DNA from: Spirochaetota bacterium
GTDB lineage: Bacteria; Spirochaetota; UBA4802; UB4802
Direction of reading: 5' to 3'
DNA length: 64,000 nucleotides
NCBI GenBank assembly: GCA_029907515.1
Contig: JARYLT010000003.1
Coordinates: forward strand, 3,448 to 67,447
Shown here piece after piece: positions 10,832 to 34,698 of the stretch. A program made the position numbers and the translations under genes. The notes below the pieces were generated by a model. It was not told the DNA's origin, ran no database searches, and saw only the letters and a list, made by a program, of their open reading frames with translations. Each line of letters starts with the position of its first letter. Position 1 is the first letter of the stretch.

Positions 10832-11656
10832 ATGTGGATTGAGCGAGAAATATCAAAAACATTAAGAGCATTTGCCCAAAAAAGGCCGGCAATTTTAGTA
10901 ACTGGCTGCAGACAATCAGGAAAAACCAGCTTGCTTAAACATGAATATCCTGAATTGTCCTATGTAACACTTGATGTTCCGTTATATGCTGAGGAAGCTA
11001 ACATAGCAGGTGATGTTTTTTTTAAAAAGATTCAAAAAGCCTTTAATCATAGATGAAATTCAATATGCACCACAGTTATTGCGTCATATAAAAGTTGAAA
11101 TTGATATTAACAGAAAAAACAACGGACAATTTTTTATAACAGGATCACAAAAATTTACACTCATGGAAGGTGTTTCCGAAAGCCTGGCAGGACGAGTGGG
11201 CATTCTTACATTACATACGCTTTCACTTAAGGAAATTCAAACAAAATATTTTTTCTTGATACCGGGCTTTTGTTATATCTTCTAGGAATAAAATCAGAAA
11301 AAGAATTGCTGAATAGTCCTTTGTTGGGAAATATTTTTGAAAGGTTGTGTTTGGGGCAAATAATACGTTATTATACCAATCAGGGTATTAATCCCACTAT
11401 ATATTTTTTTCAAGATGCATATGGTCATGAAATTGATTTTGTTATTCCTTCAGGAGAAAAACTTACCCTTATTGAGTGTAAATGGTTATTCCCTTTAGAT
11501 AAACGAAAAGAAATTGTTTCTAAGATTAAACAGATCATTCCAAAGGAAAAAATAAAAAAAATTGTGATTGTGAGTTCACAAAATGAAGAAGCTGCATTAG
11601 AAGATAAGCTTTTCCTTTATGGGTGTCATGATCCTGATAGATTTTTACGTGATTGA
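10832..11656 (+). pseudogene. DUF4143-type AAA ATPase, disrupted by two frameshifts in T-homopolymers
   Basis: Three consecutive ORF fragments together read like one ATPase (Walker A GCRQSGKTS, then PLIIDEIQ, then LAGRVGIL...LDTGLL...). Reading frame is restored by T8 to T7 at 11016-11023 and T6 to T7 at 11249-11254. Confidence 0.6.
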
Positions 11657-17433: not shown

Positions 17434-18588
17434 ATGCCTAAAGAAGGATTTAAAACAGCAAAACAAAAAAATGACTGTATTGAAGCAATAATTCAGGAAT
17501 TGGTGAACCGCAATGGTTTTCTTATTGTAGGACATACTAATCCTGATGAAGATTGTGTTGCTTCTATGATAGCATTTTCCCTGCTTGCAAAGAAATTTGA
17601 TAAGCAGGTAAAAATTTTTTCGTCAAAAAAAATACAGGAAAACTTCAAGTACCTTGTTGATATTGCCATGTATAACCGCATAGACGTTGTCACAGCAATA
17701 CCCCGCTCATTTGCCGTTGACACAATTGTTATTTGTGATACTGCCAAACCTTCCATGATTGATGCCAACAGAACTATATTGCAGATGCTTAAAAAAAGCA
17801 CTATTAGAAAAATAGAAATAGACCATCATATTGGAGCCGATAGTGACTATGCTGGTGATCCTGGGTACAGGCTGGTAACCGAGGCATCAAGTGCAAGTGA
17901 GCTTGTTGGGCAGATTGCGCTGAAACTGAGGGCAAAGAAAGAAATCTTAAAAAAATATGTTATTCTGGATCCACTGTCCCGAAACCTGGTGCTTGCAATT
18001 TTAACAGGCATTATTGGTGATTCACAGATGGGACGTTATTTGAAATCATCACGAGAAAAGCGGATGTACAGGATATTCAGTACACTGTTTAATGATATAT
18101 TAAGTACATCCACAATAAAAGAATCAAATATCACCAATATGAATCAGATCTTTGAACAGTTGAAACAGGCATCTGAAAAAGAAAAACATTGTTTCCAGTT
18201 TATAAAGAAAAAAAGCAAGGTGTATAAATCAGTTGGATATGCAATGCTGACTGAAGATGACATGCGCTATCTCTATGAAAATTTTGATGATGATGATATT
18301 ATTTCAACTACACGAACGTTGGCTGACATGCTTGCTGAAGATTCCGGGAAGGTGGGGCTGGTATCATACTATGACATTCCTGAAAAATCAAATCTGGTGC
18401 AATTTCGTATGCGCCGCAGCCAGAATTATAAAAACTATGATTTACGTGAATTCCTTACTACAATGGGCATTGAAAACGGTGGAGGGCATGAAGGAGCAAT
18501 TGGCTTCAGGTTGCCAAAACATGCTGTGGATGATTATCCAAAATTTGTAACGTCATTGGTAAAAAAGATAAATGTCCTTTTGCCATGA
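17434..18588 (+). CDS. DHH/DHHA1 phosphoesterase (NrnA-like nanoRNase/pAp phosphatase)
   Basis: DHH motifs (GHTNPDEDCVAS, DHH at IDHHIGAD) and a DHHA1 GGGH motif (ENGGGHEGAIGF). Confidence 0.85.
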   Translation: MPKEGFKTAKQKNDCIEAIIQELVNRNGFLIVGHTNPDEDCVASMIAFSLLAKKFDKQVKIFSSKKIQENFKYLVDIAMYNRIDVVTAIPRSFAVDTIVICDTAKPSMIDANRTILQMLKKSTIRKIEIDHHIGADSDYAGDPGYRLVTEASSASELVGQIALKLRAKKEILKKYVILDPLSRNLVLAILTGIIGDSQMGRYLKSSREKRMYRIFSTLFNDILSTSTIKESNITNMNQIFEQLKQASEKEKHCFQFIKKKSKVYKSVGYAMLTEDDMRYLYENFDDDDIISTTRTLADMLAEDSGKVGLVSYYDIPEKSNLVQFRMRRSQNYKNYDLREFLTTMGIENGGGHEGAIGFRLPKHAVDDYPKFVTSLVKKINVLLP

Positions 18589-18721
18589 AGACAACAGGTT
18601 TACTTTGTGGGTTTCTAAATATTTTTCATTACGGAACAATACAGAATAAAGGTAAATTTCTATAGTTCATCGTGATTGATATGATTTTCCAGCCACATCA
18701 CATATTTTCCGGAGGAATAGT

Positions 18722-20566
18722 ATGAAAAGAATTCTTATGGTATCATGCTATATGATTTTATCAGTTTCAGTGGCAATGTTTTCATTGCAGTGTGCAGGTA
18801 AAGCAGTTAAACAGGCAGAGCCGGTAAGCACTGATGAGGTTCCACGTGACACTGCATTAAAAGAAGATGATAGTGATACAACATATTCAAAAGGGTTAAA
18901 GCTTGAAAAAGAAGAATCATTTGCAACAAAAGAATCAGCAAAAACAAAGGCGCTTGCACCAAAAAAAATGGATGGATCAAAAACAGCTTCAGGATTAAAA
19001 GCTGGTTTTGCTGACGATAATAAACAGTTCAATTATTTTGTAAATTTTATTAAGGATTACAAAGATAAAGTCCAGCATTACCCCATCAATATATCTGAAA
19101 GGATTATTTTCTACTGTAAAGATATAGCAGGCAAATCAATACCCAATGCTAAGGTTAATGTTTTTAGTGGTAAAAAACTTCTTGAAACAGGTAAAACGTA
19201 TGCTGATGGATCGTTCATGTTTTACCCTTCAGAATATGATGCTAAATATACTACCTACGTGCTTACATTTGAAGCGTTAAACACAAAGGCACAAATTACG
19301 GTAGACCGACAGGGGAAGCGTGAACATACGGTAACATTGAATACACAGCGACCACAATATAAAAATGTACCGCTTGATATACTCTTTGTGTTTGACACAA
19401 CAGGCAGTATGAATGAGGAAATTGCACGCCTCAAAAAAACAATTGAGATTATTAACCTTAATATTGCATCTTTAAGTACCAAGCCTGATGTTCGTTTTGG
19501 CATGGTGCTGTATAAGGATAAGGGTGATGAATATGTTACTAAAATTATTCCACTGACAGGTAACCTTGAAAAATTTCAAAAAGAACTTTCATTGGTCACT
19601 GCAGGAGGTGGTGGTGATGGCCCTGAGGATTTGCAATCAGCACTGGCGGATGCAGTTAAGAAAATACAATGGAATACCGGTGGCATTAGACTTGCGTTTA
19701 TTATAACTGATGCCGAAGCTCATTTAGATTATGGACAACAATATACCTATGTGGATGCAGCACATGATGCAAAAAAAGAAGCAATTAAATTTTATTCCCT
19801 GGGCACCGGCGGTCTGCCATTGATGGGTGAATTTATACTGCGGCAGATTTCCCAGTATACACAGGGCAGATACATATTTTTAACGTATGGTGAACGTGGT
19901 GAAAGCGAAGGCGGCAAAGAGGGCAGTGTGAGCCATCATACCGGAGCGAATTTCCAGACTGATAAATTAGAATCAATTATAATACGCTTTGCAAAGGAAG
20001 AATTAGCATATCTTACTGACCAGCCACTTGAAGAAGACGAAGCGTACTTTGATGCTAAAAAAGTAGAAGATGAAACAAATGAGCAAACCCTGCAAAAGCT
20101 TTTTGATATGGCGATAGCTCAATTAATTGACTATTCGGCAATAAATATACAGAAAGGCGAGCCAACTGCAGTATTGCCCATAAAATCAAGTGATGCTGCA
20201 CTATCAACAAATGCTGAATATTTTACTGAACAGCTTTCAATGGCACTGGGCAAAAACAAGGTATTTACGCAGGTGGAGCGTAAAAATATGCAGCAGATAT
20301 TACATGAAATAGGTCTTGGCCAGACCGGCATTGTGGATGAAGCCAGTGCTGCAAAAGCAGGGAAGATGTTAGGAGCAAAGATGTTGATTACCGGCACATT
20401 GTATCCAAAAAATGCAAATTATGAAATCTTCCTGAAACTTATCAGGGTTGAAAGTGCCGAAGTACTGTCAGCAACAAAAGCAATTGTTGATAAAAATCTT
20501 GGTGTTGCTGAAGGAGTAAAAAAGCCACAACCAAAACAGCCGGTGAAGAAGAAACAAGCAAAGTGA
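18722..20566 (+). CDS. von Willebrand factor A domain lipoprotein with C-terminal CsgG/LpoB-like domain
   Basis: GGAGG SD. Lipobox (MFSLQCAG). vWA MIDAS motif (DILFVFDTTGSM...ITDAEAH). C-terminal stretch (QQILHEIGLGQTGIVDEASAAKAGKMLGAKMLITGTLY...FLKLIRVESAEVL) resembles the CsgG/LpoB periplasmic fold. Confidence 0.8.
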   Translation: MKRILMVSCYMILSVSVAMFSLQCAGKAVKQAEPVSTDEVPRDTALKEDDSDTTYSKGLKLEKEESFATKESAKTKALAPKKMDGSKTASGLKAGFADDNKQFNYFVNFIKDYKDKVQHYPINISERIIFYCKDIAGKSIPNAKVNVFSGKKLLETGKTYADGSFMFYPSEYDAKYTTYVLTFEALNTKAQITVDRQGKREHTVTLNTQRPQYKNVPLDILFVFDTTGSMNEEIARLKKTIEIINLNIASLSTKPDVRFGMVLYKDKGDEYVTKIIPLTGNLEKFQKELSLVTAGGGGDGPEDLQSALADAVKKIQWNTGGIRLAFIITDAEAHLDYGQQYTYVDAAHDAKKEAIKFYSLGTGGLPLMGEFILRQISQYTQGRYIFLTYGERGESEGGKEGSVSHHTGANFQTDKLESIIIRFAKEELAYLTDQPLEEDEAYFDAKKVEDETNEQTLQKLFDMAIAQLIDYSAINIQKGEPTAVLPIKSSDAALSTNAEYFTEQLSMALGKNKVFTQVERKNMQQILHEIGLGQTGIVDEASAAKAGKMLGAKMLITGTLYPKNANYEIFLKLIRVESAEVLSATKAIVDKNLGVAEGVKKPQPKQPVKKKQAK

Positions 20567-20769
20567 GGTGATTATATAAGTACCTTACAGTGATTTTTTA
20601 TTGATGCGTTATTAGTACGTTCGTACAGTGATTGAACATACAAATGGATGAAAATAAATTTTGTATGCCATTACAATTGAATTATTAAAAAGCAGTGGCA
20701 ACGAAGTATGCCCATAGTTATATCGTTGTGCAATAATGGGAAAGTGGATTTATTTTCGGAGGTTTGTAG

Positions 20770-21570
20770 ATGAAAAGATATAGTTTCTTTTTACATGTAA
20801 TACTCATTTTTATAATAACAGGTACCATCCATGCTGCAGTCCAGAACAGGACGTACGAATTCAAAGATTGTATAAGCTGGAATTTCCAGGATAAACCCAC
20901 ACCGCAAACGTACTGGACACCGTATTTGCCAATGCCAACCCAGCAAATTTTCAGGATGAAAATGGGTTTCAGGTTTTCCACAGGAACTATCGCCATAAAA
21001 AATGGTGTTAAGGTAAACTTTAGCTGGGATGATAGTGAAGCAGTTGCATTTAAGACATTAAAGCTAAAAATTAAACCTTCCCTTAATAATGAAAACTATA
21101 ATGTGTTTGAAAGCTCTTTTGGATTGTACCTTCCCAATACCATTGAGGTAGGGTTTGTTAGCATAAGTGGAGTTCCTGATATCTTGCCGTGGTTTGAATT
21201 GCCGTATGATTTTTGGGACATTGTTTCGTATATTCCAAAGGTTGGTGGTTATATTGCCAGTGCACAGGACCAGATTGGTGTAAATATGAGCTCAAAAAGT
21301 AAATTGCCACTGGGAGGTGCAGCTGAATATCACGATACAAGAGACCTTATCAGCTTAAGTTTGGCAGATTTTTTAACAGATACCAAAAAAGATCAGCTTG
21401 TGTCAAAAATATATAATAAAATACCTGCCAGTTCCAGGACAACTCTTATAACTGCTATTAAGGCTGCAAAAAAAACTCAACGATGCAGGAGCAGAACAAT
21501 TTGCAAAAAAATTGATTGGCGATGGCTTAGAAAAATTGGGCAATATGGCCTCTGTGACAGTGAAAGGTGA
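20770..21570 (+). CDS. N-terminal fragment (signal peptide plus first domain) of a large secreted repeat protein; the frame is lost at the A8 tract
   Basis: Signal peptide LHVILIFIITGTIHA. Natural-looking sequence runs up to ...LITAIKAAKK at 21467. After the A8 run (21468-21475) this frame reads QRCRSRTICKKIDWRWLRK, which is implausible, while the +1 frame continues LNDAGAEQFAKKLIGDG.... Confidence 0.5.
   Translation: MKRYSFFLHVILIFIITGTIHAAVQNRTYEFKDCISWNFQDKPTPQTYWTPYLPMPTQQIFRMKMGFRFSTGTIAIKNGVKVNFSWDDSEAVAFKTLKLKIKPSLNNENYNVFESSFGLYLPNTIEVGFVSISGVPDILPWFELPYDFWDIVSYIPKVGGYIASAQDQIGVNMSSKSKLPLGGAAEYHDTRDLISLSLADFLTDTKKDQLVSKIYNKIPASSRTTLITAIKAAKKTQRCRSRTICKKIDWRWLRKIGQYGLCDSER
21468..21475 (+). 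other. A8 homopolymer at the frame junction of the split large-protein gene
   Basis: A9 would fuse the two frames as ...AIKAAKKKLNDAGAEQF.... Candidate slipped-strand phase-variation tract or homopolymer sequencing error. Confidence 0.5.
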
Positions 21571-24500
21571 TCCCAGCTATAAAATTAAGGGGCATTCAAT
21601 GGTTGTTTTGGTAAGGTACTGGATACCTGGCAAGATGAGCGGAACCTATCCCATTACATTCACCAGACCTGATGAAGAGTTTACATTAAATATCAAGCTT
21701 CCTCCATTTATTCAGGATGGTGAGGCATTGCATATGACCGTTGATAGTATTACGTATAATTTTACTCTTGAGCAAAATCTTAAGTTTAAATTAGCGTTTG
21801 GCACTATCCCGCTTGTTCCTTCACCTGAATGTGATGTGGTTGATTCTCATAAGGTGGTAACGTATGCACAGGTGAACAAACAATTGGGTACCAGTGATTG
21901 TCTGTTACAAATACCTGTTGCAAAAAGTACTGAAAAGATACTTGATTACAAGGTAAAGGCAGGTGTTTCTTCAGCTACCGTGTGGTGGGCATCACCAAAT
22001 GTACTGCTTAAAGGAACCGTAAAAGTATATAACAATAATCAATTAATTGCACAAAAGACAGAACCATCATTTACAACGTCGCATCAGATACCGTTTACAG
22101 GGCTTACCGGGAATACAAAATACAGATTTGTTATGACCAGCATTGATAGCCAGGGAAATATTACGCCCGAGATGGTTGCTGAAGCAACGACATTAAAGGA
22201 AGCCAGGCATAGTTTTGAAAACATTACAAAACTCACCTATAATTGGGGTACATTCACGCTCACTCCTCCTGTTGTAACTACCGATACTACCTCGGCTACA
22301 TTAACCTGGTCAACTAATGTTCCTGCCAGTACTGAAGTGTTTTTGGGTTTATCATCTGATTTTGCATATAACTATGTAAATAATGTAAAAAAGGGAGTTC
22401 GTAATCCTGATGGTAGCTATTCAAATATCACAATTGCCAAAGGCTATATTGATTCTACAGATAAATCGGTTAGCAGAGTTTTTGAAACAAATCATTCCAT
22501 TACACTAACAGAGTTAGAACCAGGAACAACATACTATTATAGGGCAACGTCATACTTGTACTATAATGAAAATAATAAACAAATAATATCAAGCGATACT
22601 GCAGGTTCTTTTCTCGGTTCGTTACAGTATGTGGGAACATTTACTACAAAACAGGCTCCCCTTTTACATATACGGTGTGTTAAAGCAGCCAATAACCAGT
22701 CAGCTAAAAATGTTCCCGTGTTAATTGGGAAACAGGGTGAGGCAGGGCAGGTCTATTATACTGATAGCAATGGGTATATTCCACAGATTGTGGCGGAACG
22801 TGGGAAGGTATATACAATTGCAGTAAAGGATAATCCATATTATAAAGATAATTCAACAACATTTTCGGTTACTGCTGATCAGAGTGGTTTACTACCTTTA
22901 CTAACATTAGGATTGCAGTATAAAACTACTCCTGGGGGATATGTGTACGATAGTCGCGGGAATCCTGTAGCAGGTGCAACAATAACTGCAGCAAAAGGTA
23001 CACAAACAAAAACGGCAACAACTGATGCTACTGGATTTTTTACATTTGATGGTGATTGGCTTGGACAGGGAAGCTATACGCTTACGGTGCAGAAAGACGG
23101 ATATAAAACAGGGACGTTGCAAGCAGTGGTTGATGCTGGTGGTATCTTTACTGCAAAACCTGCAGCATTAAAATCAACTTCAATTGTCTTTAATATCACA
23201 GCTAGAAGCTATAATAATCAACCATTGAAAAATGCTTCTGTTAAAATTAAAGAAGGTAATATAACAAAATATACAGGTCAAACGAATGCATCAGGTAATG
23301 CCACTGCAGTGCTTGGCGGATACACTGATACAAATGCTCATGCCTTCACAATTGAGGTTATCCCAGCAGATAAAAATTCCCATTTAAATCCACTCTATTT
23401 GCCATCGGTTATAACCATGACATCCTTTGCAGATGATGTAAATACATTACGTGTGGTATGCCAGGCAAATACAAATCCACCTGTTGTAAGCAATGCTCAG
23501 GTTATGCGAGTGATAAATTCACTTGAAGTATATTGTGAATTTGATATAGTAGGTACACAGTATTACATTAAACATACTAAACCTGATGGGACTTCAACAA
23601 CAACACCTTTTGCAACTGCTTTGCTTAACAGTAATAATAAACCACATGCCAGGAAAACGTTTGATATGACAGGACAGGCATATGGTGTGCATACATTTAC
23701 CATTTATGCCAAGGATATGTACAATACAACGACGTATGAAGTCTATACTCTTCAAAAAGACTGGCAAAAATTAAATATTGCCAGTGGTCCAGTTATCTGG
23801 CCAAAGGTTGAACCAGGAATAGGATTTATAACCATATCGTGGCCGGCGTGGTATAAAGAAGCAGAATTTGGCAAATATGTTATACAGATGGAAAAGCCAG
23901 TAAAGACCATTGAGGTTACTGAGTATACTACCACAAGCTACAAATTAACTGGATTAACTCCTGGCGATACGTATAGCGGAACATTTAAGGTGTATGATAA
24001 AGCTGGAAATATAATTTACAGCATGCAAAATCCATCTCGATTTTTTGGACACGTGGGTTCAATTGCTCCAACAATTAGCAATGTATCAATTACTCCAAAT
24101 CCTGCTGGAACAAATCAGGAGATACGGTTCCTGGCAACAGTAAGTGATCCTGATACTAATCTAACTCATGTTAATTTAGTGTTACAGGAGTATGTAGAAA
24201 CTACTGATTCAAAAGGCAATCTCATCACAAAGATGGGAAAAACCACTACCTTAATAGATACCGATGTGTACAATACTAAGACGTACCAGGTGAGTCATAG
24301 GTTTATTTGCAGTGAACCTGGTAAACATAAACTTATATTGAAAGCTAATGGAGCATCTCCTAATGAATTTACTCAGGCAGAATATAGTGTTATTGTACAG
24401 CAAGGGCTTGATCCATCAACGCCAAAGATTTCAATTGAAGGACCAAATGCCTCGTTAAAACAGATACTTACTGATGGCTATCTGTTAAAGATTAATATAG

Positions 24501-24778
24501 TATCAGTTGATGCTGAATCAGAAAATATTAAGGCTGTTATAGATTGGGGTGATGGCACCGTTAAAAGCGAGATGATTGAACGAGAAAGTTTAAGTGTTTC
24601 AACCACTGGCAAAGAAGGTCATCCTGATTTCCGCAGGATATTATCAGGCTCAGTATCTACTAAATACTATTATCAAAAACCAGGTGTATATATAATAACT
24701 GGGTATATTCAATCAGAGTTACAAGGCAAAAAGCTACAATCACAACCTGTACGATTAGAAATAAGAGTAACCGAATAA
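21512..24778 (+). CDS. large secreted protein with Ig/FN3-like and carboxypeptidase-regulatory-like beta-sandwich repeats (C-terminal ~1100 aa of the split gene)
   Basis: 1088 aa, Thr/Ser/Asn-rich, with several ~90-aa beta-sandwich repeats (e.g. GATITAAKGTQTKTATTDATGFFTF...YTLTVQKDGYKTG). The open frame extends upstream to 21452, directly after the A8 tract. Confidence 0.75.
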   Translation: MIGDGLEKLGNMASVTVKGDPSYKIKGHSMVVLVRYWIPGKMSGTYPITFTRPDEEFTLNIKLPPFIQDGEALHMTVDSITYNFTLEQNLKFKLAFGTIPLVPSPECDVVDSHKVVTYAQVNKQLGTSDCLLQIPVAKSTEKILDYKVKAGVSSATVWWASPNVLLKGTVKVYNNNQLIAQKTEPSFTTSHQIPFTGLTGNTKYRFVMTSIDSQGNITPEMVAEATTLKEARHSFENITKLTYNWGTFTLTPPVVTTDTTSATLTWSTNVPASTEVFLGLSSDFAYNYVNNVKKGVRNPDGSYSNITIAKGYIDSTDKSVSRVFETNHSITLTELEPGTTYYYRATSYLYYNENNKQIISSDTAGSFLGSLQYVGTFTTKQAPLLHIRCVKAANNQSAKNVPVLIGKQGEAGQVYYTDSNGYIPQIVAERGKVYTIAVKDNPYYKDNSTTFSVTADQSGLLPLLTLGLQYKTTPGGYVYDSRGNPVAGATITAAKGTQTKTATTDATGFFTFDGDWLGQGSYTLTVQKDGYKTGTLQAVVDAGGIFTAKPAALKSTSIVFNITARSYNNQPLKNASVKIKEGNITKYTGQTNASGNATAVLGGYTDTNAHAFTIEVIPADKNSHLNPLYLPSVITMTSFADDVNTLRVVCQANTNPPVVSNAQVMRVINSLEVYCEFDIVGTQYYIKHTKPDGTSTTTPFATALLNSNNKPHARKTFDMTGQAYGVHTFTIYAKDMYNTTTYEVYTLQKDWQKLNIASGPVIWPKVEPGIGFITISWPAWYKEAEFGKYVIQMEKPVKTIEVTEYTTTSYKLTGLTPGDTYSGTFKVYDKAGNIIYSMQNPSRFFGHVGSIAPTISNVSITPNPAGTNQEIRFLATVSDPDTNLTHVNLVLQEYVETTDSKGNLITKMGKTTTLIDTDVYNTKTYQVSHRFICSEPGKHKLILKANGASPNEFTQAEYSVIVQQGLDPSTPKISIEGPNASLKQILTDGYLLKINIVSVDAESENIKAVIDWGDGTVKSEMIERESLSVSTTGKEGHPDFRRILSGSVSTKYYYQKPGVYIITGYIQSELQGKKLQSQPVRLEIRVTE

Positions 24779-24804
24779 TAAGTTGTATAAAAATACCGTA
24801 TTAA

Positions 24805-24838
24805 GCCCATCTCATACAACAAGAGGTGGGCTTTTAAT
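24805..24838 (+). terminator. intrinsic terminator after the large secreted protein gene
   Basis: GCCCATCTC-atacaacaa-GAGGTGGGC forms a 9-bp stem with one G-U pair, followed by TTTTAATTTT. Confidence 0.6.
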
Positions 24839-24950
24839 TTTATGTAAATAACCTCCATGAAGGAATAGCCCACATTGAAGGATGAGAAAGCTGGTATAAA
24901 CGTTCACCACGGTAGATGATGAGGCCACCAGGGAATTTTTTATTTTCTCC

Positions 24951-24989
24951 TTGACAGTAGTACTACATATCCGTATAGTTATTTTTATG
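24951..24989 (+). promoter_or_regulatory. dinB promoter TTGACA-17 nt-TATAGT ending 7 nt before the ATG (apparently leaderless); the spacer contains the palindrome GTAGTACTAC
   Basis: -35 at 24951-24956, -10 at 24974-24979, ATG at 24987. No SD is possible. The perfect 10-bp palindrome at 24957-24966 is a candidate SOS-type operator. Confidence 0.45.
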
Positions 24990-26165
24990 AAAGATCGAAT
25001 AATTCTTCATGTGGACATGGATGCCTTCTTTACTTCGGTTGAGCAGGTGGATAATCCTTCGTTAAAGGGGAAGCCTGTTGTGGTTGGAGCTGATCCTAAA
25101 GGTGGAAGGGGCCGCGGTGTAGTTTCGGCTGCAAGCTATGAGGCACGTAGGTTCGGCATTCATTCAGGAATGCCTATTTCACAGGCGTATAAACTATGCC
25201 CAGGGGCGGTCTTTTTGCCCCCACGGTTTGACCGATACGTTGAACTATCGCACATAATTATGAAAATTTTTGAGCGCTATTCCCCCTGTATTGAACAGAT
25301 AAGCATTGACGAAGCATTTTTAGATTGTACAGGGACACTGAAACTGTTTGGGAATGTGGAAAACATTGCACGTAATATTAAAACTGATGTTTTTACACAA
25401 ACAGGGCTTACCTGCAGCATTGGGATTGCGTCAAATAAGTTGGTTGCCAAGATTGCGTCAGATTTGCAAAAGCCTGATGGGCTCACAATATGTCCCTGTG
25501 GAATGGAAAAAGATTTTCTGGCACCACTGAGCATTGCAAAATTATATGGTGTTGGCATAAAAACACAGAAATATTTAGAGTCATTAGGATACAACACCAT
25601 TGGGGATATTCAGCGTGTTGATGAAAACTTTTTGCAAAGCCTGCTTGGGAAATGGGGTATAGTGTTACATCAGTTTGCACTGGGTATTGATAGTCGTCCT
25701 GTTGAGCCATACTCTCAGGCAAAGTCAGTGAGTGAAGAAACAACCTTTGATGTTGATACTGATGATGAAGATAGTATTATTTTTACACTGGTTGAACTGT
25801 GTGATCGTGTTATACGAAGGGTCAGAGCCGCTGAATTTTCTTTTAAGACAGTGACGTTAAAAATACGATTGGAAGGTTTTGAAACATATACACGCAGTAA
25901 AACACTACAGCAACATGCCCGTGATATGGCAACACTGCAAAAGGAAATTATGCGGTTATACATTTCATTTGGTCGAGGGAAAAGGAAAGTGCGGCTTTTA
26001 GGGGTTAAGGTTTCAAATTTGCTGTGTAATGCTGATGTGCAGATGAACCTTTTTGAAAACCAACAAAAGGTTGAAAAAATTGAGGAAGTTATTGATAGTA
26101 TTCATAATAAGGGACTTAATGTGTTACGAGCTTCGGTGATAAAACCGCCAAAAAAGAAGGGATAG
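24987..26165 (+). CDS. dinB: DNA polymerase IV (Y-family translesion polymerase)
   Basis: ILHVDMDAFFTSVE, SIDEAFLD and the overall DinB-like sequence. Start at ATG 24987; the ORF-track TTG at 24951 is the -35 hexamer. Confidence 0.9.
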   Translation: MKDRIILHVDMDAFFTSVEQVDNPSLKGKPVVVGADPKGGRGRGVVSAASYEARRFGIHSGMPISQAYKLCPGAVFLPPRFDRYVELSHIIMKIFERYSPCIEQISIDEAFLDCTGTLKLFGNVENIARNIKTDVFTQTGLTCSIGIASNKLVAKIASDLQKPDGLTICPCGMEKDFLAPLSIAKLYGVGIKTQKYLESLGYNTIGDIQRVDENFLQSLLGKWGIVLHQFALGIDSRPVEPYSQAKSVSEETTFDVDTDDEDSIIFTLVELCDRVIRRVRAAEFSFKTVTLKIRLEGFETYTRSKTLQQHARDMATLQKEIMRLYISFGRGKRKVRLLGVKVSNLLCNADVQMNLFENQQKVEKIEEVIDSIHNKGLNVLRASVIKPPKKKG

Positions 26166-28734: not shown

Positions 28735-29134
28735 AAGTTTCCTCCATGATAGAAAAATAATCTCATTAAAAATATTATAATAATACAATCTTATAATGTC
28801 AATAAAAATATTTATTATAATTAATATTTTTTTTAGATAGTTAATAATATATATACATATTATAAATAATGTAATATCAGAACAAAATAATGAGAGGTAT
28901 TGAGTGGTGAAGTTCAATATTTATACTATATGATAGGGGTAATTTATAACTTTACTTTCTTATTTATATATATTACATGATTTATGTGTTGTTATTCATT
29001 TACTGATTACGTTACCATTTATATAAGCATAAAGAGTTGTTATTATGTATAGAAGCGTTGTAATCATTGAGAACATTGTAGAAATGGCATTGAAGTGATA
29101 CAATGATTAACTATTGTTTTCAGAGGAGGTGGCC

Positions 29135-32100
29135 ATGACGCCTACAATACAAAAAGGCTTTATAGCTGTTATGATTGTTCTGGTGATTTGTTTTGGTATA
29201 ACAACAGCATATGTTTTAAATACCAATGAGATTAAGCTTACCATAGATTACGATAACAACACGCCATATACCGAACTATCATTGCAATTTTCCAGAGATA
29301 TATTTATAGTTTCAGATATTGATGCAATGAAAAATGATATAGCTCAAAAGCTCACTGTATCATTTAATCCTGAGCTTGAATATATATTAAAACCTTTGGA
29401 TTCACGTAATTGCATTCTTGAAATATATAATCCCAAACCAGCACATGAATACCAGTTTACCATTATTGTAAAAAATATTGATACCAATGGGTTATATGTA
29501 ACAGCAAATAATAAAGAAATTGAGTTAGGGAAAACCTACTTTTTCAGAACTCCAGTGCTGCGGGTTTATCATTGTTCCAAAGAAAGCAAAATGATAAACA
29601 GCCCAATTGTGCTGCAATTTAATTTCCCTGTTTCACTCAATGTTCTCAAGCAAAAAATGTCAATACGACCGGATGTTCAGTATACACTGGAATACGATAG
29701 TAATGATACCAGCCATAGAACAGTAATAGTGAAGCCCATCAATGAAAAGAAAGCACAAAAATATTCATTGACCATTGATAAAACCATGGTGCCAGCCAGT
29801 GGTGTCATTGGTATGGATACTTCCTATACATTTACCTATACAACCTATTTCCCGTTTGAGCTAACCGATATACAATCATCATACAGTCGTTACTATGATG
29901 ATTCATCATATTATCCTGATTATCCTGTTGAATTTACTTTCAACAATGAAATTGCTCTTCCTCAGGGGAAAAGTGTTAGCGAATTTGTAACTGTGACACC
30001 TGATCCAGGTGGTTTGCAGGTGAATATGTATGGTAACACAATTGCGGTGAGTGGAAATTTTACTGGCAAAAAAACATACACAGTTACTATCGCACAAACA
30101 TTACAGGATATCTATGGACAAACATTACAGGAACCTGTTGAAACGGAAATTGAATTTGAGCATGCATTTTCATATTTTTCATGTCCAACAGGATATATGC
30201 TGCTGGAGAACTATCTTGAGAAGATTATTCCTTTACGCATGGTCAATGTTTCATCATTTGAATGCAGGTATCTATCGCTTGTAAATGAAAACGATATTAA
30301 AGCGTACTTTGAAAGCCCAAAAGAATATTTCAATAAACATGCAAAAACAAAAACGTATACACTAAACTGGACATGGGATGTGTATAAAACTGTTAAGTTT
30401 GATTATTCAAAACTGCATCAGGGAGATAATGGGATTTTTGTTTATGAGCTAAAGCCAGTTATGGAACATCCGTATGAAAATAATCATGATGTCTTTCGTG
30501 GTATGATGCAACTTTCAGATATTGGTGTGACCGTAAAAAAAACAAAAAATGATATATTAGTACATGTCAGAGATTTATTGAACAACAAGGCATTAGCCGG
30601 TGCGTCATTATTCTGTACAGGGGCGGAAGTGTCGCTGGGACAAACAGATGCTAAAGGTGTTTTGATTGTTAAAAATAATGGATGTTCGCTGTTTACGATA
30701 AAACATGGCAAAAGCATTTTTTATTACTCAATGCAGCGCGATAATGGCTATAGCGATGAAGATGAACGTGCCAAAATTAATCTTCCAGAAAAATATTATG
30801 GCAGTGATTATTACATACTAAAGCCTCAGGTGCATCTTTTTACCGACAGATATTTATACAGGCCAGGTGAAATAGTTCATATCAAAGGAATACTCAGGTA
30901 CAGGAATAATGATCAGTGGAGTATTAAACCACCGCTGTCAGTAATAAAAAATGTTATGCTCACCGTCATTAATTCGCGTGATGAGGAGATTGCTTCTTCT
31001 GCCAGGTCAGTGTCAGCAACCGGTGGCATTGAGTGGGATATAGCACTTAAAGAAGACTATCCTACCGGGTACTATCGCATAACTGTTAGTTCCAGTAATA
31101 AAGATTATGATCTTTATCAAAGTATTGATTTCCAGGTTGAGGAGTTTAAACCGGCAAAAGCTGAAATGAAAATTATTCCATCAAAGCTTACGTTTTTGTG
31201 GGGGGAAATTCTTTCGGTTGACCTGTTTGGATGGTATTTATTTGGTGCCCCGGTAAATAACGATGTGGAATATACGGTTACATTGCAGCCGGTAACCTAT
31301 CGCAGTAGCGTATTTGCTGATTATTCATTTTCAACACAGCTTAATTATTATGATGAATATGATGAGTATAGTCCACCATCAACGGTTGTTGCCAGTGGCA
31401 AAGCAAAAGTAAATGAAAAAGGCATTGCAAAGGTGCATGTTCCGCTTAAAGCTATTGCCAATGTGCCCAATGCAGAAATATTGATTACTGGACGGACGTA
31501 TCTTTCAGATGATTCGCCAGTATTTGGTGCAAAGAGTGGACTTACGGTGGCAGAACCAGTTCATGTTGGCATAAAGGTTCCGCGCTACTTTAATTATACA
31601 AAAGAGCCTGTTACCATACAGCTTGTTGCCTGCAACAATGATGATACTGTTGTTGAAGGTACTCCAATAAAATTAGTTATAAAAAAGCATGAATGGAAAT
31701 CATTTCAGATAGCGGGAGTAAATGGAAGATTGCAATGGGAATACAAAAAAATAGAAACCGAAGTCAATGTACAGAATCATACTATTGGGAAAAAAGATGT
31801 AATAGCAACCATTAATGATCCCGGGTACTATACAGCAGAAGCATATGACAGCCAGGGAAAAAGAAAATATGCAGTGTGTGATTTTTACGTTCTGGGCAAA
31901 GGCGAAGCAGGGTGGCGTGTGAACGATGATGAAACTGTTGATGTTGAAACTGATAAAAAAAGCTACAATGTTGGTGAAACAGCAATGCTTCTGGTTAAGA
32001 ATCCTTTTACCAAAGCTCAGGCATTTGTTAGTATTGAAAGAGAAAAATTTTATGATTACTTTGAAGTGCCTGCAACATCAAGTGTTGTTATGATTCCGGT

Positions 32101-34696
32101 CAAAATAACACAAGAGCATATTCCAAATATTTATGTAAGTGTTATGCTGTATTCTGGAAGAACAGGGTTTAATGCCTTGAAAGATGGGGAGGATAGAGCA
32201 AAACCACGCTGTCTAATTGGATACGTCAATATTAAAGTTACACCAAAAGAAAAGAAATTATCTGTTCAGGTTAAACCAGATAAAAAGCAATATGAGCCGG
32301 GTGGCTATACAACGGTGGAATTGCTGGTAAAAGATTATAAAGGACAACCGGTGGATGGAGAGGCAACAATATCTATTGCTGATAGAGGTGTATTAAATCT
32401 TGTCAATTATACATTACCTGATCCCTATGAATACTTTTATGCCCCGCGACAACTTGCGATTACTACATTTGATGTACATCAGATTATTCTTGGGCAGCGG
32501 TACCTTAAAGAAAAGGGCGAACTGGTAGGTGGTGATGGTGGCATTGCTTCAATGGGTATGATTGTCCCGCGGGCTGATATACGGTTCAGTGCATATTATA
32601 AGGCAACAGTTGTGGTAAAACAGGGAAAAGCAAAGGTGCAATGTAAGCTGCCTGATAACCTCACCAGCTTCAAATCGATGGTTGTTGTTCACACAGAAGA
32701 TTCAAAATTTGGATATGGTGAAGCAACCTTTGAGGTTAAAAAACCTTTAATGCTATTGCCAACCTTCCCGCGCTTTGTTCGTGTTGGTGATACGTTTAAT
32801 GCTGGTGCTCTTGTTTTCAATTATACTGGCAAAAAGGAAAACGTTACACTAGGCCTGGAATTGAAAAATGGCTTGAAGCTTAAAGATGGTTCCACGGTTG
32901 CTGTAAAAGAGCTTATTCTTAACAATGGGCAATCTCAGGAAGTAACCTTCCCGGTTACAGTAACTGGACAGGCAGGTATGGCAGGTTTTACGGTCAAAGC
33001 ACAGGCAGGAACCTATACAGATGGCATTACAGATACCATACCTATCAAAGCTCCTAATATATTTGAAACAGTGGCACAGTATGGAAGGATTACAACTCCA
33101 CAGGCCAGAGAAGTACAGGAGATAACCATAACCAGAAATATTATACCTGAAGTCTCCTCGATTAATATTTTTACTTCTCCATCGGCATTTGTGGATCTTA
33201 AAGGTTGCCTTGATTATTTAGTTGACTATCCCTATGGATGTTTTGAACAAAAGGCTTCTAAAATTTTACCACTCATTTTAGGTGAGGAAATCATTGTTCA
33301 AAAAGGGCTTTTAAAAACAAAGTCAAAAAATGATCTCAGAAAAGTAGTTACTGATGTTTTGAAAGAATTTCCTGCTTACTACAAAAATGGAGGATTTGCA
33401 TACTGGAAAGATGGTTCGCTTCCCAGTAGCTATCTCACAGTATATGCTGCATTTATTATGACCATGGCCAAAAAAAGAGGCTATGATGTTGATAATGCTG
33501 TCTATAATGATACCATTAAGGTGATAAAACAGTTTATAAAAAAAGGTAACATATTTAGCCATGAGGGAAGGAACTCATCCTGGTATACCTATACTACACT
33601 TGCTTTTGCTCATTATGTTGCAGCATTACAAGGCTTTATCAGTGAAAATGAATTAAAGCTTGTATACAGTACAATAACCAAAAAATATGATGATTGCATT
33701 GCCGCATATGCTTATCTACTGAAAGCCCTTGCATTATATCCTGATTCAACATTAAAGAAAACACTGGTAAAAGAAATTGCTGAAAAATTCTTTTCCCGCA
33801 TGCGGACTGAGTCGGGATATGTGTATTTTACTGATACATCGCAATGGGGATATTTTTATTATGATACGGTCCTGTCAACTGCTCTCATTTTACAGGCTCT
33901 ACTGGAAGCCAGTATCCCCTTTAATAATGATTACAAGGTTGTGCAGTATTTGCTGAAACAGCGCAAAGGGTATGCATGGCTCAATACCCATCAGAATGCA
34001 GTAGTATGGTGGGCTCTCAATAGCTATCTTGTACGCTATGAAAAAGATAAACCTGATTATTCACTTCAGGTGCTTGTTGATACAAAGGAATTGCTGAATG
34101 CAATTGTTAATTACAGCAATGTGCATTTTGCAAAACAATATATCGTGACATCAGAAGATATTGGTGTAAAAAAAATAAGTTTTATCAAAAACGGACAGGG
34201 TACCTGTTACTTTACCATGCAATACAGATATATTCCTGTATACGAAGCAATGACGTCAAAAAATATGGGGTTTGATGTAAGCAAACTATTTAAAGATGTA
34301 AAAACAAAGGAAACTGTCAAAACATTCAAGAAAGGCTCAGAGTATATTGTTGAAATAACGGTATATACTCCTAAGGATCGTGGGATTACTGTGCTTGAAG
34401 ACCAGTTGCCGTCAGGATTTGAACCTGTCAATGTTACATTTGCTACTGAAGAAAAGGTGGCAGTAGACAAAAAGAGTGATTACACAAACTGGGGTACGTT
34501 CAATCACTATGAGCAGTACAGTGACAGGATTATCTATTATGCTGATTTTATACAGCATGGAACACATAAAGTTATATTCAAGGTGAGAGCAACAAACTCT
34601 GGCACATTCAAACTCCCTGCCTGTAAGGTTGAAGAGATGTACAACCCTGAAGTGTTTGGTATCCTGTACTTCAGCAATACTGTTACTGTAGAGTAG
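29135..34696 (+). CDS. alpha-2-macroglobulin family protein (bacterial A2M with candidate thioester)
   Basis: About 1850 aa with an N-terminal TM anchor, MG-domain repeats and YGCFEQ at the thioester (CxEQ) position. Directly followed by pbpC (the conserved A2M-PBP1C pair). GGAGG SD before ATG 29135. Confidence 0.9.
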   Translation: MTPTIQKGFIAVMIVLVICFGITTAYVLNTNEIKLTIDYDNNTPYTELSLQFSRDIFIVSDIDAMKNDIAQKLTVSFNPELEYILKPLDSRNCILEIYNPKPAHEYQFTIIVKNIDTNGLYVTANNKEIELGKTYFFRTPVLRVYHCSKESKMINSPIVLQFNFPVSLNVLKQKMSIRPDVQYTLEYDSNDTSHRTVIVKPINEKKAQKYSLTIDKTMVPASGVIGMDTSYTFTYTTYFPFELTDIQSSYSRYYDDSSYYPDYPVEFTFNNEIALPQGKSVSEFVTVTPDPGGLQVNMYGNTIAVSGNFTGKKTYTVTIAQTLQDIYGQTLQEPVETEIEFEHAFSYFSCPTGYMLLENYLEKIIPLRMVNVSSFECRYLSLVNENDIKAYFESPKEYFNKHAKTKTYTLNWTWDVYKTVKFDYSKLHQGDNGIFVYELKPVMEHPYENNHDVFRGMMQLSDIGVTVKKTKNDILVHVRDLLNNKALAGASLFCTGAEVSLGQTDAKGVLIVKNNGCSLFTIKHGKSIFYYSMQRDNGYSDEDERAKINLPEKYYGSDYYILKPQVHLFTDRYLYRPGEIVHIKGILRYRNNDQWSIKPPLSVIKNVMLTVINSRDEEIASSARSVSATGGIEWDIALKEDYPTGYYRITVSSSNKDYDLYQSIDFQVEEFKPAKAEMKIIPSKLTFLWGEILSVDLFGWYLFGAPVNNDVEYTVTLQPVTYRSSVFADYSFSTQLNYYDEYDEYSPPSTVVASGKAKVNEKGIAKVHVPLKAIANVPNAEILITGRTYLSDDSPVFGAKSGLTVAEPVHVGIKVPRYFNYTKEPVTIQLVACNNDDTVVEGTPIKLVIKKHEWKSFQIAGVNGRLQWEYKKIETEVNVQNHTIGKKDVIATINDPGYYTAEAYDSQGKRKYAVCDFYVLGKGEAGWRVNDDETVDVETDKKSYNVGETAMLLVKNPFTKAQAFVSIEREKFYDYFEVPATSSVVMIPVKITQEHIPNIYVSVMLYSGRTGFNALKDGEDRAKPRCLIGYVNIKVTPKEKKLSVQVKPDKKQYEPGGYTTVELLVKDYKGQPVDGEATISIADRGVLNLVNYTLPDPYEYFYAPRQLAITTFDVHQIILGQRYLKEKGELVGGDGGIASMGMIVPRADIRFSAYYKATVVVKQGKAKVQCKLPDNLTSFKSMVVVHTEDSKFGYGEATFEVKKPLMLLPTFPRFVRVGDTFNAGALVFNYTGKKENVTLGLELKNGLKLKDGSTVAVKELILNNGQSQEVTFPVTVTGQAGMAGFTVKAQAGTYTDGITDTIPIKAPNIFETVAQYGRITTPQAREVQEITITRNIIPEVSSINIFTSPSAFVDLKGCLDYLVDYPYGCFEQKASKILPLILGEEIIVQKGLLKTKSKNDLRKVVTDVLKEFPAYYKNGGFAYWKDGSLPSSYLTVYAAFIMTMAKKRGYDVDNAVYNDTIKVIKQFIKKGNIFSHEGRNSSWYTYTTLAFAHYVAALQGFISENELKLVYSTITKKYDDCIAAYAYLLKALALYPDSTLKKTLVKEIAEKFFSRMRTESGYVYFTDTSQWGYFYYDTVLSTALILQALLEASIPFNNDYKVVQYLLKQRKGYAWLNTHQNAVVWWALNSYLVRYEKDKPDYSLQVLVDTKELLNAIVNYSNVHFAKQYIVTSEDIGVKKISFIKNGQGTCYFTMQYRYIPVYEAMTSKNMGFDVSKLFKDVKTKETVKTFKKGSEYIVEITVYTPKDRGITVLEDQLPSGFEPVNVTFATEEKVAVDKKSDYTNWGTFNHYEQYSDRIIYYADFIQHGTHKVIFKVRATNSGTFKLPACKVEEMYNPEVFGILYFSNTVTVE

Positions 34697-34698
34697 CT

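Follow-up and report, generated by a model that had tools for sequence, protein, structure and literature searches.

A lineage-specific frameshift at an A8 tract in the gene of a predicted surface repeat protein from an uncultured Spirochaetota species

Organization of the interrupted gene and its neighbourhood

The window, i.e. the whole 64,000-nt stretch of DNA analysed, harbours a large gene that is split into two reading frames and preceded by a partner gene encoding a vWA protein. The features of this region are the following, all of them on the forward strand:

18722-20566, forward: upstream partner gene, whose product of 614 aa has a vWA domain and, at its C terminus, a CsgG/LpoB-like domain
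20758-20762, forward: GGAGG ribosome-binding site read from the sequence, 7 nt 5′ of the ATG of the large gene
20770-20835, forward: signal-peptide-like N terminus MKRYSFFLHVILIFIITGTIHA, recognized by eye without a predictor and conserved in the orthologue alignment
20770-21570, forward: 5′ fragment of the large gene (ORF1), annotated separately by NCBI as MDH7552200.1
20836-21934, forward: N-terminal domain, conserved and uncharacterised, covering aa 23-388 once the frame is repaired
21468-21475, forward: A8 tract, longer by one inserted nucleotide than that of the intact A7 allele (GCA AAA AAA CTC = A K K L)
21476-24778, forward: 3′ part of the gene, read in the +1 frame, with 1100 codons and a stop codon (NCBI: 1059 aa, MDH7552201.1)
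21505-21511, forward: second A-run, A7 (GCA AAA AAA TTG), 30 nt 3′ of the first, in frame and identical across alleles
22274-22549, forward: FN3-like domain, matched by Pfam Pur_ac_phosph_N
22937-23143, forward: CarboxypepD_reg domain, an Ig-like beta-sandwich
23828-24010, forward: FN3 domain

The partner gene is intact in the window lineage, a counterpoint to reading its neighbour as a pseudogene, and its synteny with the large gene was kept in every lineage examined; its product is a putative lipoprotein, judging from a Cys-containing N-terminal signal read by eye. ORF1 (266 aa) is composed of 235 genuine codons, which read naturally to ...LITAIKAAKK, and of an out-of-frame tail of 31 codons (TQRCRSRTICKK...) followed by a stop. 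The +1 frame opens at 21452, immediately after the TAA at 21449-21451 and shortly before the tract, crosses the junction as KKLNDAGAEQFAKKLIGDGLEKLGN and remains open to the stop at 24776-24778. The initial annotation had described this arrangement as a single gene broken precisely where the A8 tract lies, and this was borne out, since intact orthologues of 1335-1337 aa, 58-63% identical and covering 100% of the repaired protein, show the same stretch, IKAAKK[LV]NDAGAE, across the junction, with invariant positions on either side of it. Both ORFs are thus halves of a single 1335-codon gene, slightly shorter than the about 1350 aa estimated at first, which meet at a tract flanked by C at either end, the frame being shifted at codon 236. 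The in silico adjustment of the tract length revealed that A7 yields a single ORF of 1335 aa and A10 one of 1336 aa, whereas A9, the repair originally proposed, produces KKNSTMQEQNNLQKN followed by a stop and many others; A7 is the state found in intact relatives, and the frame-restored product reads ...KAAKKLNDAGAEQF... across the junction.

By its architecture, the gene product is a predicted secreted or surface protein, with a novel N-terminal domain of ~390 aa followed by FN3/Ig-like repeats. The Ig/FN3-like repeats claimed earlier were recovered as FN3, Pur_ac_phosph_N and CarboxypepD_reg domains, and the claimed signal peptide corresponds to a signal-peptide-like sequence visible by eye only. 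The frameshift falls inside the N-terminal domain, between the predicted helices 220-234 and 238-258, and the AF2 model also placed the junction within a single domain. The 1100-codon 3′ part is devoid of a signal peptide of its own, and inspection by eye revealed no Shine-Dalgarno motif ahead of either the TTG at 21512 or the ATG at 21545, both in frame. Moreover, Rfam and tRNA scans revealed no other elements in the interval, and promoter- and terminator-like sites were not more frequent there than in shuffled sequence.

Distribution of the A8 allele and other losses of the gene

The tract lengths compared here were taken from assembled consensus sequences, where minority lengths within populations stay invisible. 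Besides the window, 12 further contigs carried the A8 tract; they derive from at least six projects and were obtained with several short-read assemblers or pipelines (at least three): contigs from Logan (SRR12489244/46/48 and SRR25909819/20/23, with one contig common to 7 samples), from ENA (ERZ27257445, megahit; ERZ772709, SPAdes) and from JGI (3300009658, 3300009711, 3300010338). The frameshift at 21468-21475 is therefore real, and a sequencing error at this position was refuted at the consensus level, the same A8 being reproduced in independent data sets. At that level, all 13 sequences of the window haplotype, from about 18 samples, carried A8, in perfect linkage with the window-type SNPs at 21351-21559, among them 21444 T and 21512 T, and A7 was observed only together with the alternative SNPs, in a sister allele (contigs L010, L011 and L014) that is intact and encodes 1336 aa. 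The intact allele is represented, for instance, in DRR438499. A7 and A8 are both present in one species-level population, and A8 represents, in these consensus sequences, one event with no visible switching.

Three distinct ORF1 protein variants were recovered, all of them with the same frameshifted tail, and no secondary lesions were detected in the downstream 1100 codons of any A8 contig. The dN/dS was 0.27-0.31 between the A8 allele and intact alleles and 0.28 between two intact ones, a comparison that has no power as the A8 contigs are identical over 21351-23330. Either the A8 allele arose very recently or it is still subject to some constraint.

Across the five orthologue lineages, the tract site was GCA AAA AAA (A7) in three and GCA AAA AAG (AAAAAG) in two, and these orthologues (L015-L019), together with the sister allele, were all in frame through it. 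The ancestral intact frame is demonstrable from the orthologues, and the A8 lesion is confined to one lineage. A pattern scan of JGI metagenome contigs, allowing tract lengths from 5 to 12, returned one already-known contig and no new tract states, and neither the pattern scan nor a protein-based scan with N-terminal alignment produced any match in the GTDB species representatives.

The same gene was lost by other routes. Within the same species, a 5′-deletion allele was found on 23 contigs, with flanks 98.2-98.4% identical; it lacks the segments corresponding to window positions 20555-20709 and ~20742-23414 (2.7 kb, promoter-proximal), so that the ribosome-binding site, the start codon and 882 codons are gone, and ~20710-20741 is the sole surviving piece of the 5′ region of the gene. 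The remaining part is:

23415-24778, forward: last 453 codons, the only part of the gene left in the 5′-deletion allele

The deletion junction was common to all nine loci reaching it, and this allele occurred together with the A8 allele in three samples. In a sister species (L020/L021), the gene is in frame through the A-tract site and carries a different frameshift further upstream, the loss of one nucleotide from the Trp50 codon (TGG to TG) outside any homopolymer tract, and the vWA partner gene carries a nonsense codon. The gene and its vWA partner were repeatedly and independently lost in this clade; therefore, the protein would be dispensable, or its loss favoured, in the sampled habitats.

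Origin of the A8 tract

The initial annotation had also raised the possibility of systematic homopolymer errors, that is, of a true A7 over-called in the window assembly, on the grounds that another broken gene of the window, taken as the only other one, was likewise interrupted at homopolymers. Two gene remnants are in fact found besides the A8 gene:

10832-11656: AAA_14/DUF4143 pseudogene, with a T7-to-T8-type frameshift at 11016-11023
24840-24938, reverse strand: third gene remnant of the window

It is true that the frameshifts at 21468 and 11016 are both 7-to-8 over-length runs, and that the first fragment of the AAA_14/DUF4143 pseudogene (74 aa, 10832-11053), looked up as an exact match, had no record, i.e. 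the T8 lesion was not found in another assembly. However, only the T8 lesion of that gene lies at a homopolymer: its second lesion is not a T6 indel, as previously read, but an internal deletion of ~430 bp, with homologue residues ~138-280 absent and the DUF4143 match beginning at profile position 77, and because of this deletion the gene is regarded as truly decayed. Moreover, of the 69 long homopolymers of the window, 45 are contained in intact frames of 250 aa or more. The window contains 20 A/T runs of 8 nt, the longest A/T length observed in it, and 13 of them besides the A8 tract fall in such intact ORFs; A8 runs in intact genes occur, for example, at 18961, 30535, 34168 and 41584. The assembly is not riddled with homopolymer errors and, given the identical A8 in the 12 other contigs and the shared tail of the three protein variants, the chance that the tract is an artefact is next to nil.

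A second possibility raised at the outset is that of a reversible contingency locus, in which slipped-strand mispairing would toggle a surface adhesin or antigen between A7 (ON) and A8 (OFF), the sampled populations being mostly OFF. The break coincides exactly with a homopolymer, within the first third of the coding sequence of a secreted or surface protein, both lengths coexist in one species-level population, the downstream frame is free of secondary lesions with a dN/dS of about 0.3, 8 nt is the longest A/T run that the genome tolerates in the window, and the recurrent inactivation of the gene hints that its expression is selected against, a setting where switches evolve. Nevertheless, the repeat expected at the frame junction is present only as a short tract, and ON and OFF lengths were not observed in the same background at the consensus level, A7 being restricted to the other local haplotype. 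The repeat is neither maintained among orthologues nor longer than the genomic background, as the 13 other 8-nt runs in intact genes attest, and nothing points to selection for mutability, because the ON tract is only 7 nt long and is broken by AAG in two of the five lineages. In addition, the silencing seen in sister lineages is irreversible, caused by a deletion, a frameshift outside repeats and a nonsense mutation, and this would be unexpected for an evolved reversible switch. Phase variation is thus unlikely, and it is improbable that A7/A8 constitutes a working switch of a rare surface-protein type, with a novel N-terminal domain and a vWA-lipoprotein partner, in this uncultured lineage; were it so, three different null alleles coexisting within samples would point to strong, fluctuating selection against displaying the protein, for instance as a phage receptor. 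It might also be supposed that the A8 allele still yields full-length protein, either by RNA polymerase slippage generating A7 or A10 mRNAs or by a ribosomal +1 shift on AAA-AAA-A, the split being tolerated or setting a low expression. Eight A's form a moderately slippery template. RNA polymerase is known to slip on runs of 8 or 9 A's, and 8 A's seem to be put to productive use by certain IS elements (Baranov et al. 2005, PMC1088944); the sequence further indicates that tRNA-Lys, once moved by +1 on AAA AAA A, would again pair perfectly, and the downstream frame is intact in every A8 contig. Against this stands the absence of the frameshift from the orthologues and the sister allele, all of them in frame, and therefore programmed recoding fails in its defining trait, a conserved two-frame arrangement with a slippery site. 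A stimulatory context is also lacking, since the A site would hold ACT, the next 0-frame codon, which is neither a slow nor a stop codon, and the 100 nt downstream of the tract have no unusual structure (MFE -19.9 kcal/mol, z = 0.21 versus shuffles). Furthermore, the transcript would have to lose 1 nt or gain 2 nt to come back into frame, and at 8 nt such RNAs are expected to be minority products, as inferred from PMC1088944. Recoding of this kind is consequently quite improbable, even though a small amount of full-length protein may arise from the slippery A8 template. A classical -1 frameshift on A_AAA_AAC was rejected, as the -1 frame hits a stop after 15 codons.

The preferred explanation, held with a probability of about three in four, is a recent, lineage-specific loss-of-function frameshift from A7 to A8 in a dispensable or counter-selected surface protein. 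One A would have been added, most likely by replication slippage, to an ordinary Lys-Lys A7 run (GCA AAA AAA) in one strain lineage of this uncultured Spirochaetota species. The truncated product would keep the signal peptide and ~60% of the N-terminal domain, followed by 31 nonsense residues, and the downstream 1100 codons would be left with neither a start signal nor an export signal of their own, so that most likely neither half is functional. Reversion of the A8 allele, or transcriptional slippage at a low level, may still occur. The A8 allele would be one of several independent routes by which the gene and its vWA-lipoprotein partner have been lost in the clade. The initial annotation had stated that a uniform A8 would indicate a fixed pseudogene, and this is the outcome favoured by the consensus-level data. 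For databases, MDH7552200.1 and MDH7552201.1 represent the two pieces of a single frameshifted gene whose lesion is biological, mainly a result for annotation and quality control. Moreover, intact, frameshift and 5′-deletion alleles of one surface-protein gene are found in a single species-level population, and the sister species has lost both this gene and its vWA partner. This pattern marks the protein as dispensable or counter-selected, and read-level work on the strain dynamics of these communities, and on phages or predation as a possible pressure, could build on it.

Comparison with known systems

The gene resembles the large bacterial FN3/Ig-repeat proteins usually named 'carboxypeptidase regulatory-like domain-containing protein', with which it shares the signal peptide (here recognized by eye) and the tandem FN3 and CarboxypepD_reg beta-sandwiches. 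The genes fused by transcriptional slippage, such as Thermus dnaX (A9), Shigella mxiE and IS elements with A8/A9 (PMC1088944), also have a run of 8 A's at an ORF junction that a single-nucleotide change in the transcript would bridge, whereas the two-ORF arrangement seen here is not conserved among homologues and its fusion needs -1 or +2 nt.

The likeness to contingency loci lies in the homopolymer in the 5′ part of a secreted or surface repeat-protein gene and in the coexistence of in-frame and out-of-frame lengths in the species. Simple-sequence contingency loci with poly-A, -G or -C tracts are found in Neisseria, Haemophilus, Campylobacter and Helicobacter; in contrast, the present tract is short, in frame at 7 nt and out of frame at 8 nt, does not vary in length within the haplotype, is not conserved as a repeat in orthologues and is no longer than many housekeeping-gene tracts of the window.

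Replication-slippage indels at short homopolymers are ordinary events, catalogued in the comparative genomics of many bacteria. The A8 gene shares with such lineage-specific frameshift pseudogenes the single-base insertion in a 7-nt run on one haplotype, the intact orthologues and sister allele, and the loss of other alleles by deletion, nonsense and non-repeat frameshift. It does not differ from them in any essential respect; the allele is probably young, free of secondary lesions so far, and assembled from many metagenome samples.

Reading frames and architecture of the interrupted gene

The gene coding for the large secreted repeat protein, its upstream neighbour and the interrupting tract are placed as follows:

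18722-20566, plus strand: vWA gene, coding for a vWA and CsgG/LpoB-like lipoprotein (lipoprotein call made by eye)
20770-24778: repeat-protein gene, 1335 codons when repaired
21468-21475: run of eight As (A8), with C at either side

The split described at A8 by the initial annotation matched the sequence. ORF1 (20770 to 21570, 266 aa) reads ...TLITAIKAAKK followed by 31 Arg/Cys-rich codons up to the stop, and the +1 frame, preceded by a TAA at 21449-21451, is open from 21452 and ends at 24778, reading KKLNDAGAEQFAKKLIGDGLEKLGN... The repair by A9 proposed there was mistaken, since this length leads into the -1 frame, which reads KKNSTMQEQNNLQKN* and then meets numerous stops; the lengths restoring the frame are A7 (1335 aa) and A10 (1336 aa).

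Searches with the repaired protein revealed full-length orthologues of 1335-1337 aa (58-63% identity, 100% query cover), and remoter relatives (30-38% identity, 1000-1800 aa) presented the same N-terminal region at their start. Orthologue residues run over the junction (IKAAKK[LV]NDAGAE, IKMAKKVNDAGAE and IKAAKKLDDAGAQ), with invariant residues on either side, e.g. D189 and G266-D267-P268. Pfam matches were found in the part 3' of the break (the FN3-like Pur_ac_phosph_N, CarboxypepD_reg and fn3), and none on ORF1. AlphaFold modelled the repaired N terminus (two models, pLDDT 78.8 and 81.3) as a single beta-rich domain of ~aa 23-388 carrying a three-helix insert; the frameshift, at codon 236, fell between helices 220-234 and 238-258. 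Since the break lies inside one modelled domain, ORF1 is a truncated domain rather than a separate protein. At the first in-frame downstream starts (TTG 21512 and ATG 21545), no preceding Shine-Dalgarno motif was seen by eye and, as read from the sequence, a signal peptide is lacking.

Origin of the A8 allele

The alternative that A8 was a sequencing or assembly error is hardly credible, being refuted by recurrence of the tract in 12 contigs beyond the window, whose DNA was fetched and compared, and of the frameshifted tail in variant genes. The exact ORF1 protein, including this tail, was recorded in NCBI (MDH7552200.1, from a Spirochaetota MAG), JGI, ENA and Logan, and the same tail was present in two more ORF1 variants with other substitutions. 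Moreover, 45 of the 69 long homopolymers in the window, including 13 further 8-nt runs, fell within stop-free frames of 250 aa or longer, and for this reason there is no systematic homopolymer problem in the window.

Contigs carrying A8, by source
Logan: SRR12489244/46/48, SRR25909819/20/23 (one contig common to 7 samples)
ENA: ERZ27257445 (megahit), ERZ772709 (SPAdes)
JGI: 3300009658, 3300009711, 3300010338

The initial annotation had also proposed a phase-variation switch as one reading of the tract, and A7 with an unbroken gene was indeed found in three contigs (L010 and L011, from DRR438499 and DRR438503, 1336 aa; and L014, from GCA_012798545.1, partial). In the variable-site table, A8 was perfectly linked to the window-type SNP alleles upstream (21351-21444) and downstream (21512-21559), and A7 to the alternative alleles at the same sites; no haplotype occurred in both tract states among the compared contigs, which are assembled consensus sequences in which minority lengths are invisible. 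The gene is mosaic, with contigs L012, L013 and L001/L002 changing haplotype elsewhere in it, either by recombination or by chimeric assembly; despite this mosaicism, the tract state always went with its immediate flanks, as a single mutational event would predict. Orthologues carried GCA AAA AAA at the tract in three lineages and GCA AAA AAG in two. The tract is simply a string of Ala-Lys-Lys codons, as found in a genome rich in A and T (37.5% G+C), and is no maintained repeat. True phase variation thus found no support at the consensus level, where it could be tested, and is unlikely.

A/T runs of 6, 7 and 8 nt numbered 132, 44 and 20 in the window, and runs of at least 9 nt numbered 0 vs ~2 expected under an independent-sites (base-composition) model; A8 is therefore at the length ceiling of the window, yet far from unique. 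Baranov et al. 2005 (PMC1088944) reported selection against runs of 9 or more, in accord with such a ceiling. Low-level transcriptional slippage on eight As is possible (cf. PMC1088944), and a meaningful rescue by it is very improbable. Sequence features gave no support for programmed recoding: the tract is followed by ACT as the next 0-frame codon, folding of the 100 nt downstream was no stronger than that of shuffled sequences (z = 0.21), the -1 frame closes after 15 codons and the two-frame arrangement is not conserved.

The dN/dS of the A8 allele against intact alleles was 0.27-0.31, and 0.28 between intact alleles; the A8 contigs were identical over 21351-23330, and the allele would therefore be young. 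A recent, fixed loss-of-function frameshift thus has a probability of about 0.75, and the favoured reading is that of an ordinary frameshift pseudogene of recent origin in a locus undergoing repeated loss.

Contig ends were also observed close to the tract: L014 starts just 24 nt upstream of it, and two independent A8 contigs (L005 and L007) both stop 242 nt downstream. This hints that assemblies tend to break near a strain-variable stretch, with mixed haplotypes in those samples. Contigs such as L003 matched the window across the repeat-protein gene with 1 mismatch in 4384 nt and showed 9 differences over 851 positions towards the 3' end of the vWA gene (window 19700-20550). Together with the mosaics, the latter divergence points to frequent recombination among coexisting strains, or to chimeric metagenome contigs.

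Recurrent loss and neighbouring genes

In a sister species (L020/L021, ~84-85% nucleotide identity), loss of 1 nt from the Trp50 codon (TGG to TG; L020:7834-8001), where no homopolymer tract is present, splits the orthologue, and the vWA/CsgG-LpoB-like lipoprotein gene had a premature stop (L020:4390-4888). The order DHH phosphoesterase, vWA lipoprotein, repeat protein and dinB (pol IV) was otherwise kept across species (window 17434-26165; L016, L017, L020), and the two middle proteins may work together.

A further allele codes for P0020, a 453-aa protein of the same cluster. The 23 contigs that carry it, several NCBI MAGs among them, were 98.2-98.4% identical to the window in their flanking genes and therefore belong to the same species. 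These contigs lack window 20555-20709 and ~20742-23414; the 5' 2.7 kb of the gene is lost with its RBS, start codon, signal peptide and first 882 codons, and the remaining last 453 codons begin 36 nt past the vWA gene (e.g. L023:5955-6000). The junction was the same in 9/9 loci reaching it (L023-L031), and this allele occurred with A8 in the same samples (JGI 3300010338, JGI 3300009711 and ERZ772709). The gene has thus been inactivated on at least three independent occasions, two of them through lesions that are irreversible or lie outside repeats. This speaks for a dispensable gene or for selection favouring its loss, the A8 insertion being a further null allele.

Two AAA_14/DUF4143 relics were also found:

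10832-11656: AAA_14/DUF4143 ATPase pseudogene
24840-24938, minus strand: remnant, last 32 codons (FPGGLIIYRGERLYQLSHPSMWAIPSWRLFT*), overlooked by the initial annotation

The pseudogene had been described as broken at homopolymers, which held for the T8 frameshift (11016-11023), where cutting to T7 gave a complete AAA_14 match. The second lesion is instead an internal deletion of ~430 bp: the DUF4143 match begins at profile position 77, immediately after AAA_14, and ~143 homologue residues are absent, which is real decay rather than two homopolymer miscalls. Both frameshifts in the window (21468 and 11016) are 7-to-8 expansions. At the position of the remnant, the gene is intact (419 aa) in deletion-allele contigs L023-L032, where the ~1.16 kb missing from the window is bounded by a ~9-nt repeat, AAGAAnTTTTT. 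The ORF-finder dinB start, TTG 24951, adjoins the 3' side of this stub, and the true start is probably the ATG ~36 nt beyond (MKDRIILHVDMDAFF). Relatives at three different positions around the repeat-protein gene (L017, L020 and L023) suggest that AAA_14/DUF4143 genes move or turn over fast.

Elsewhere, positions 29114-36978 of the window code for a bacterial alpha-2-macroglobulin of 1860 aa and, directly after it, a PBP1C-type transglycosylase/transpeptidase of 759 aa; we take these to be the known A2M-PbpC gene pair.
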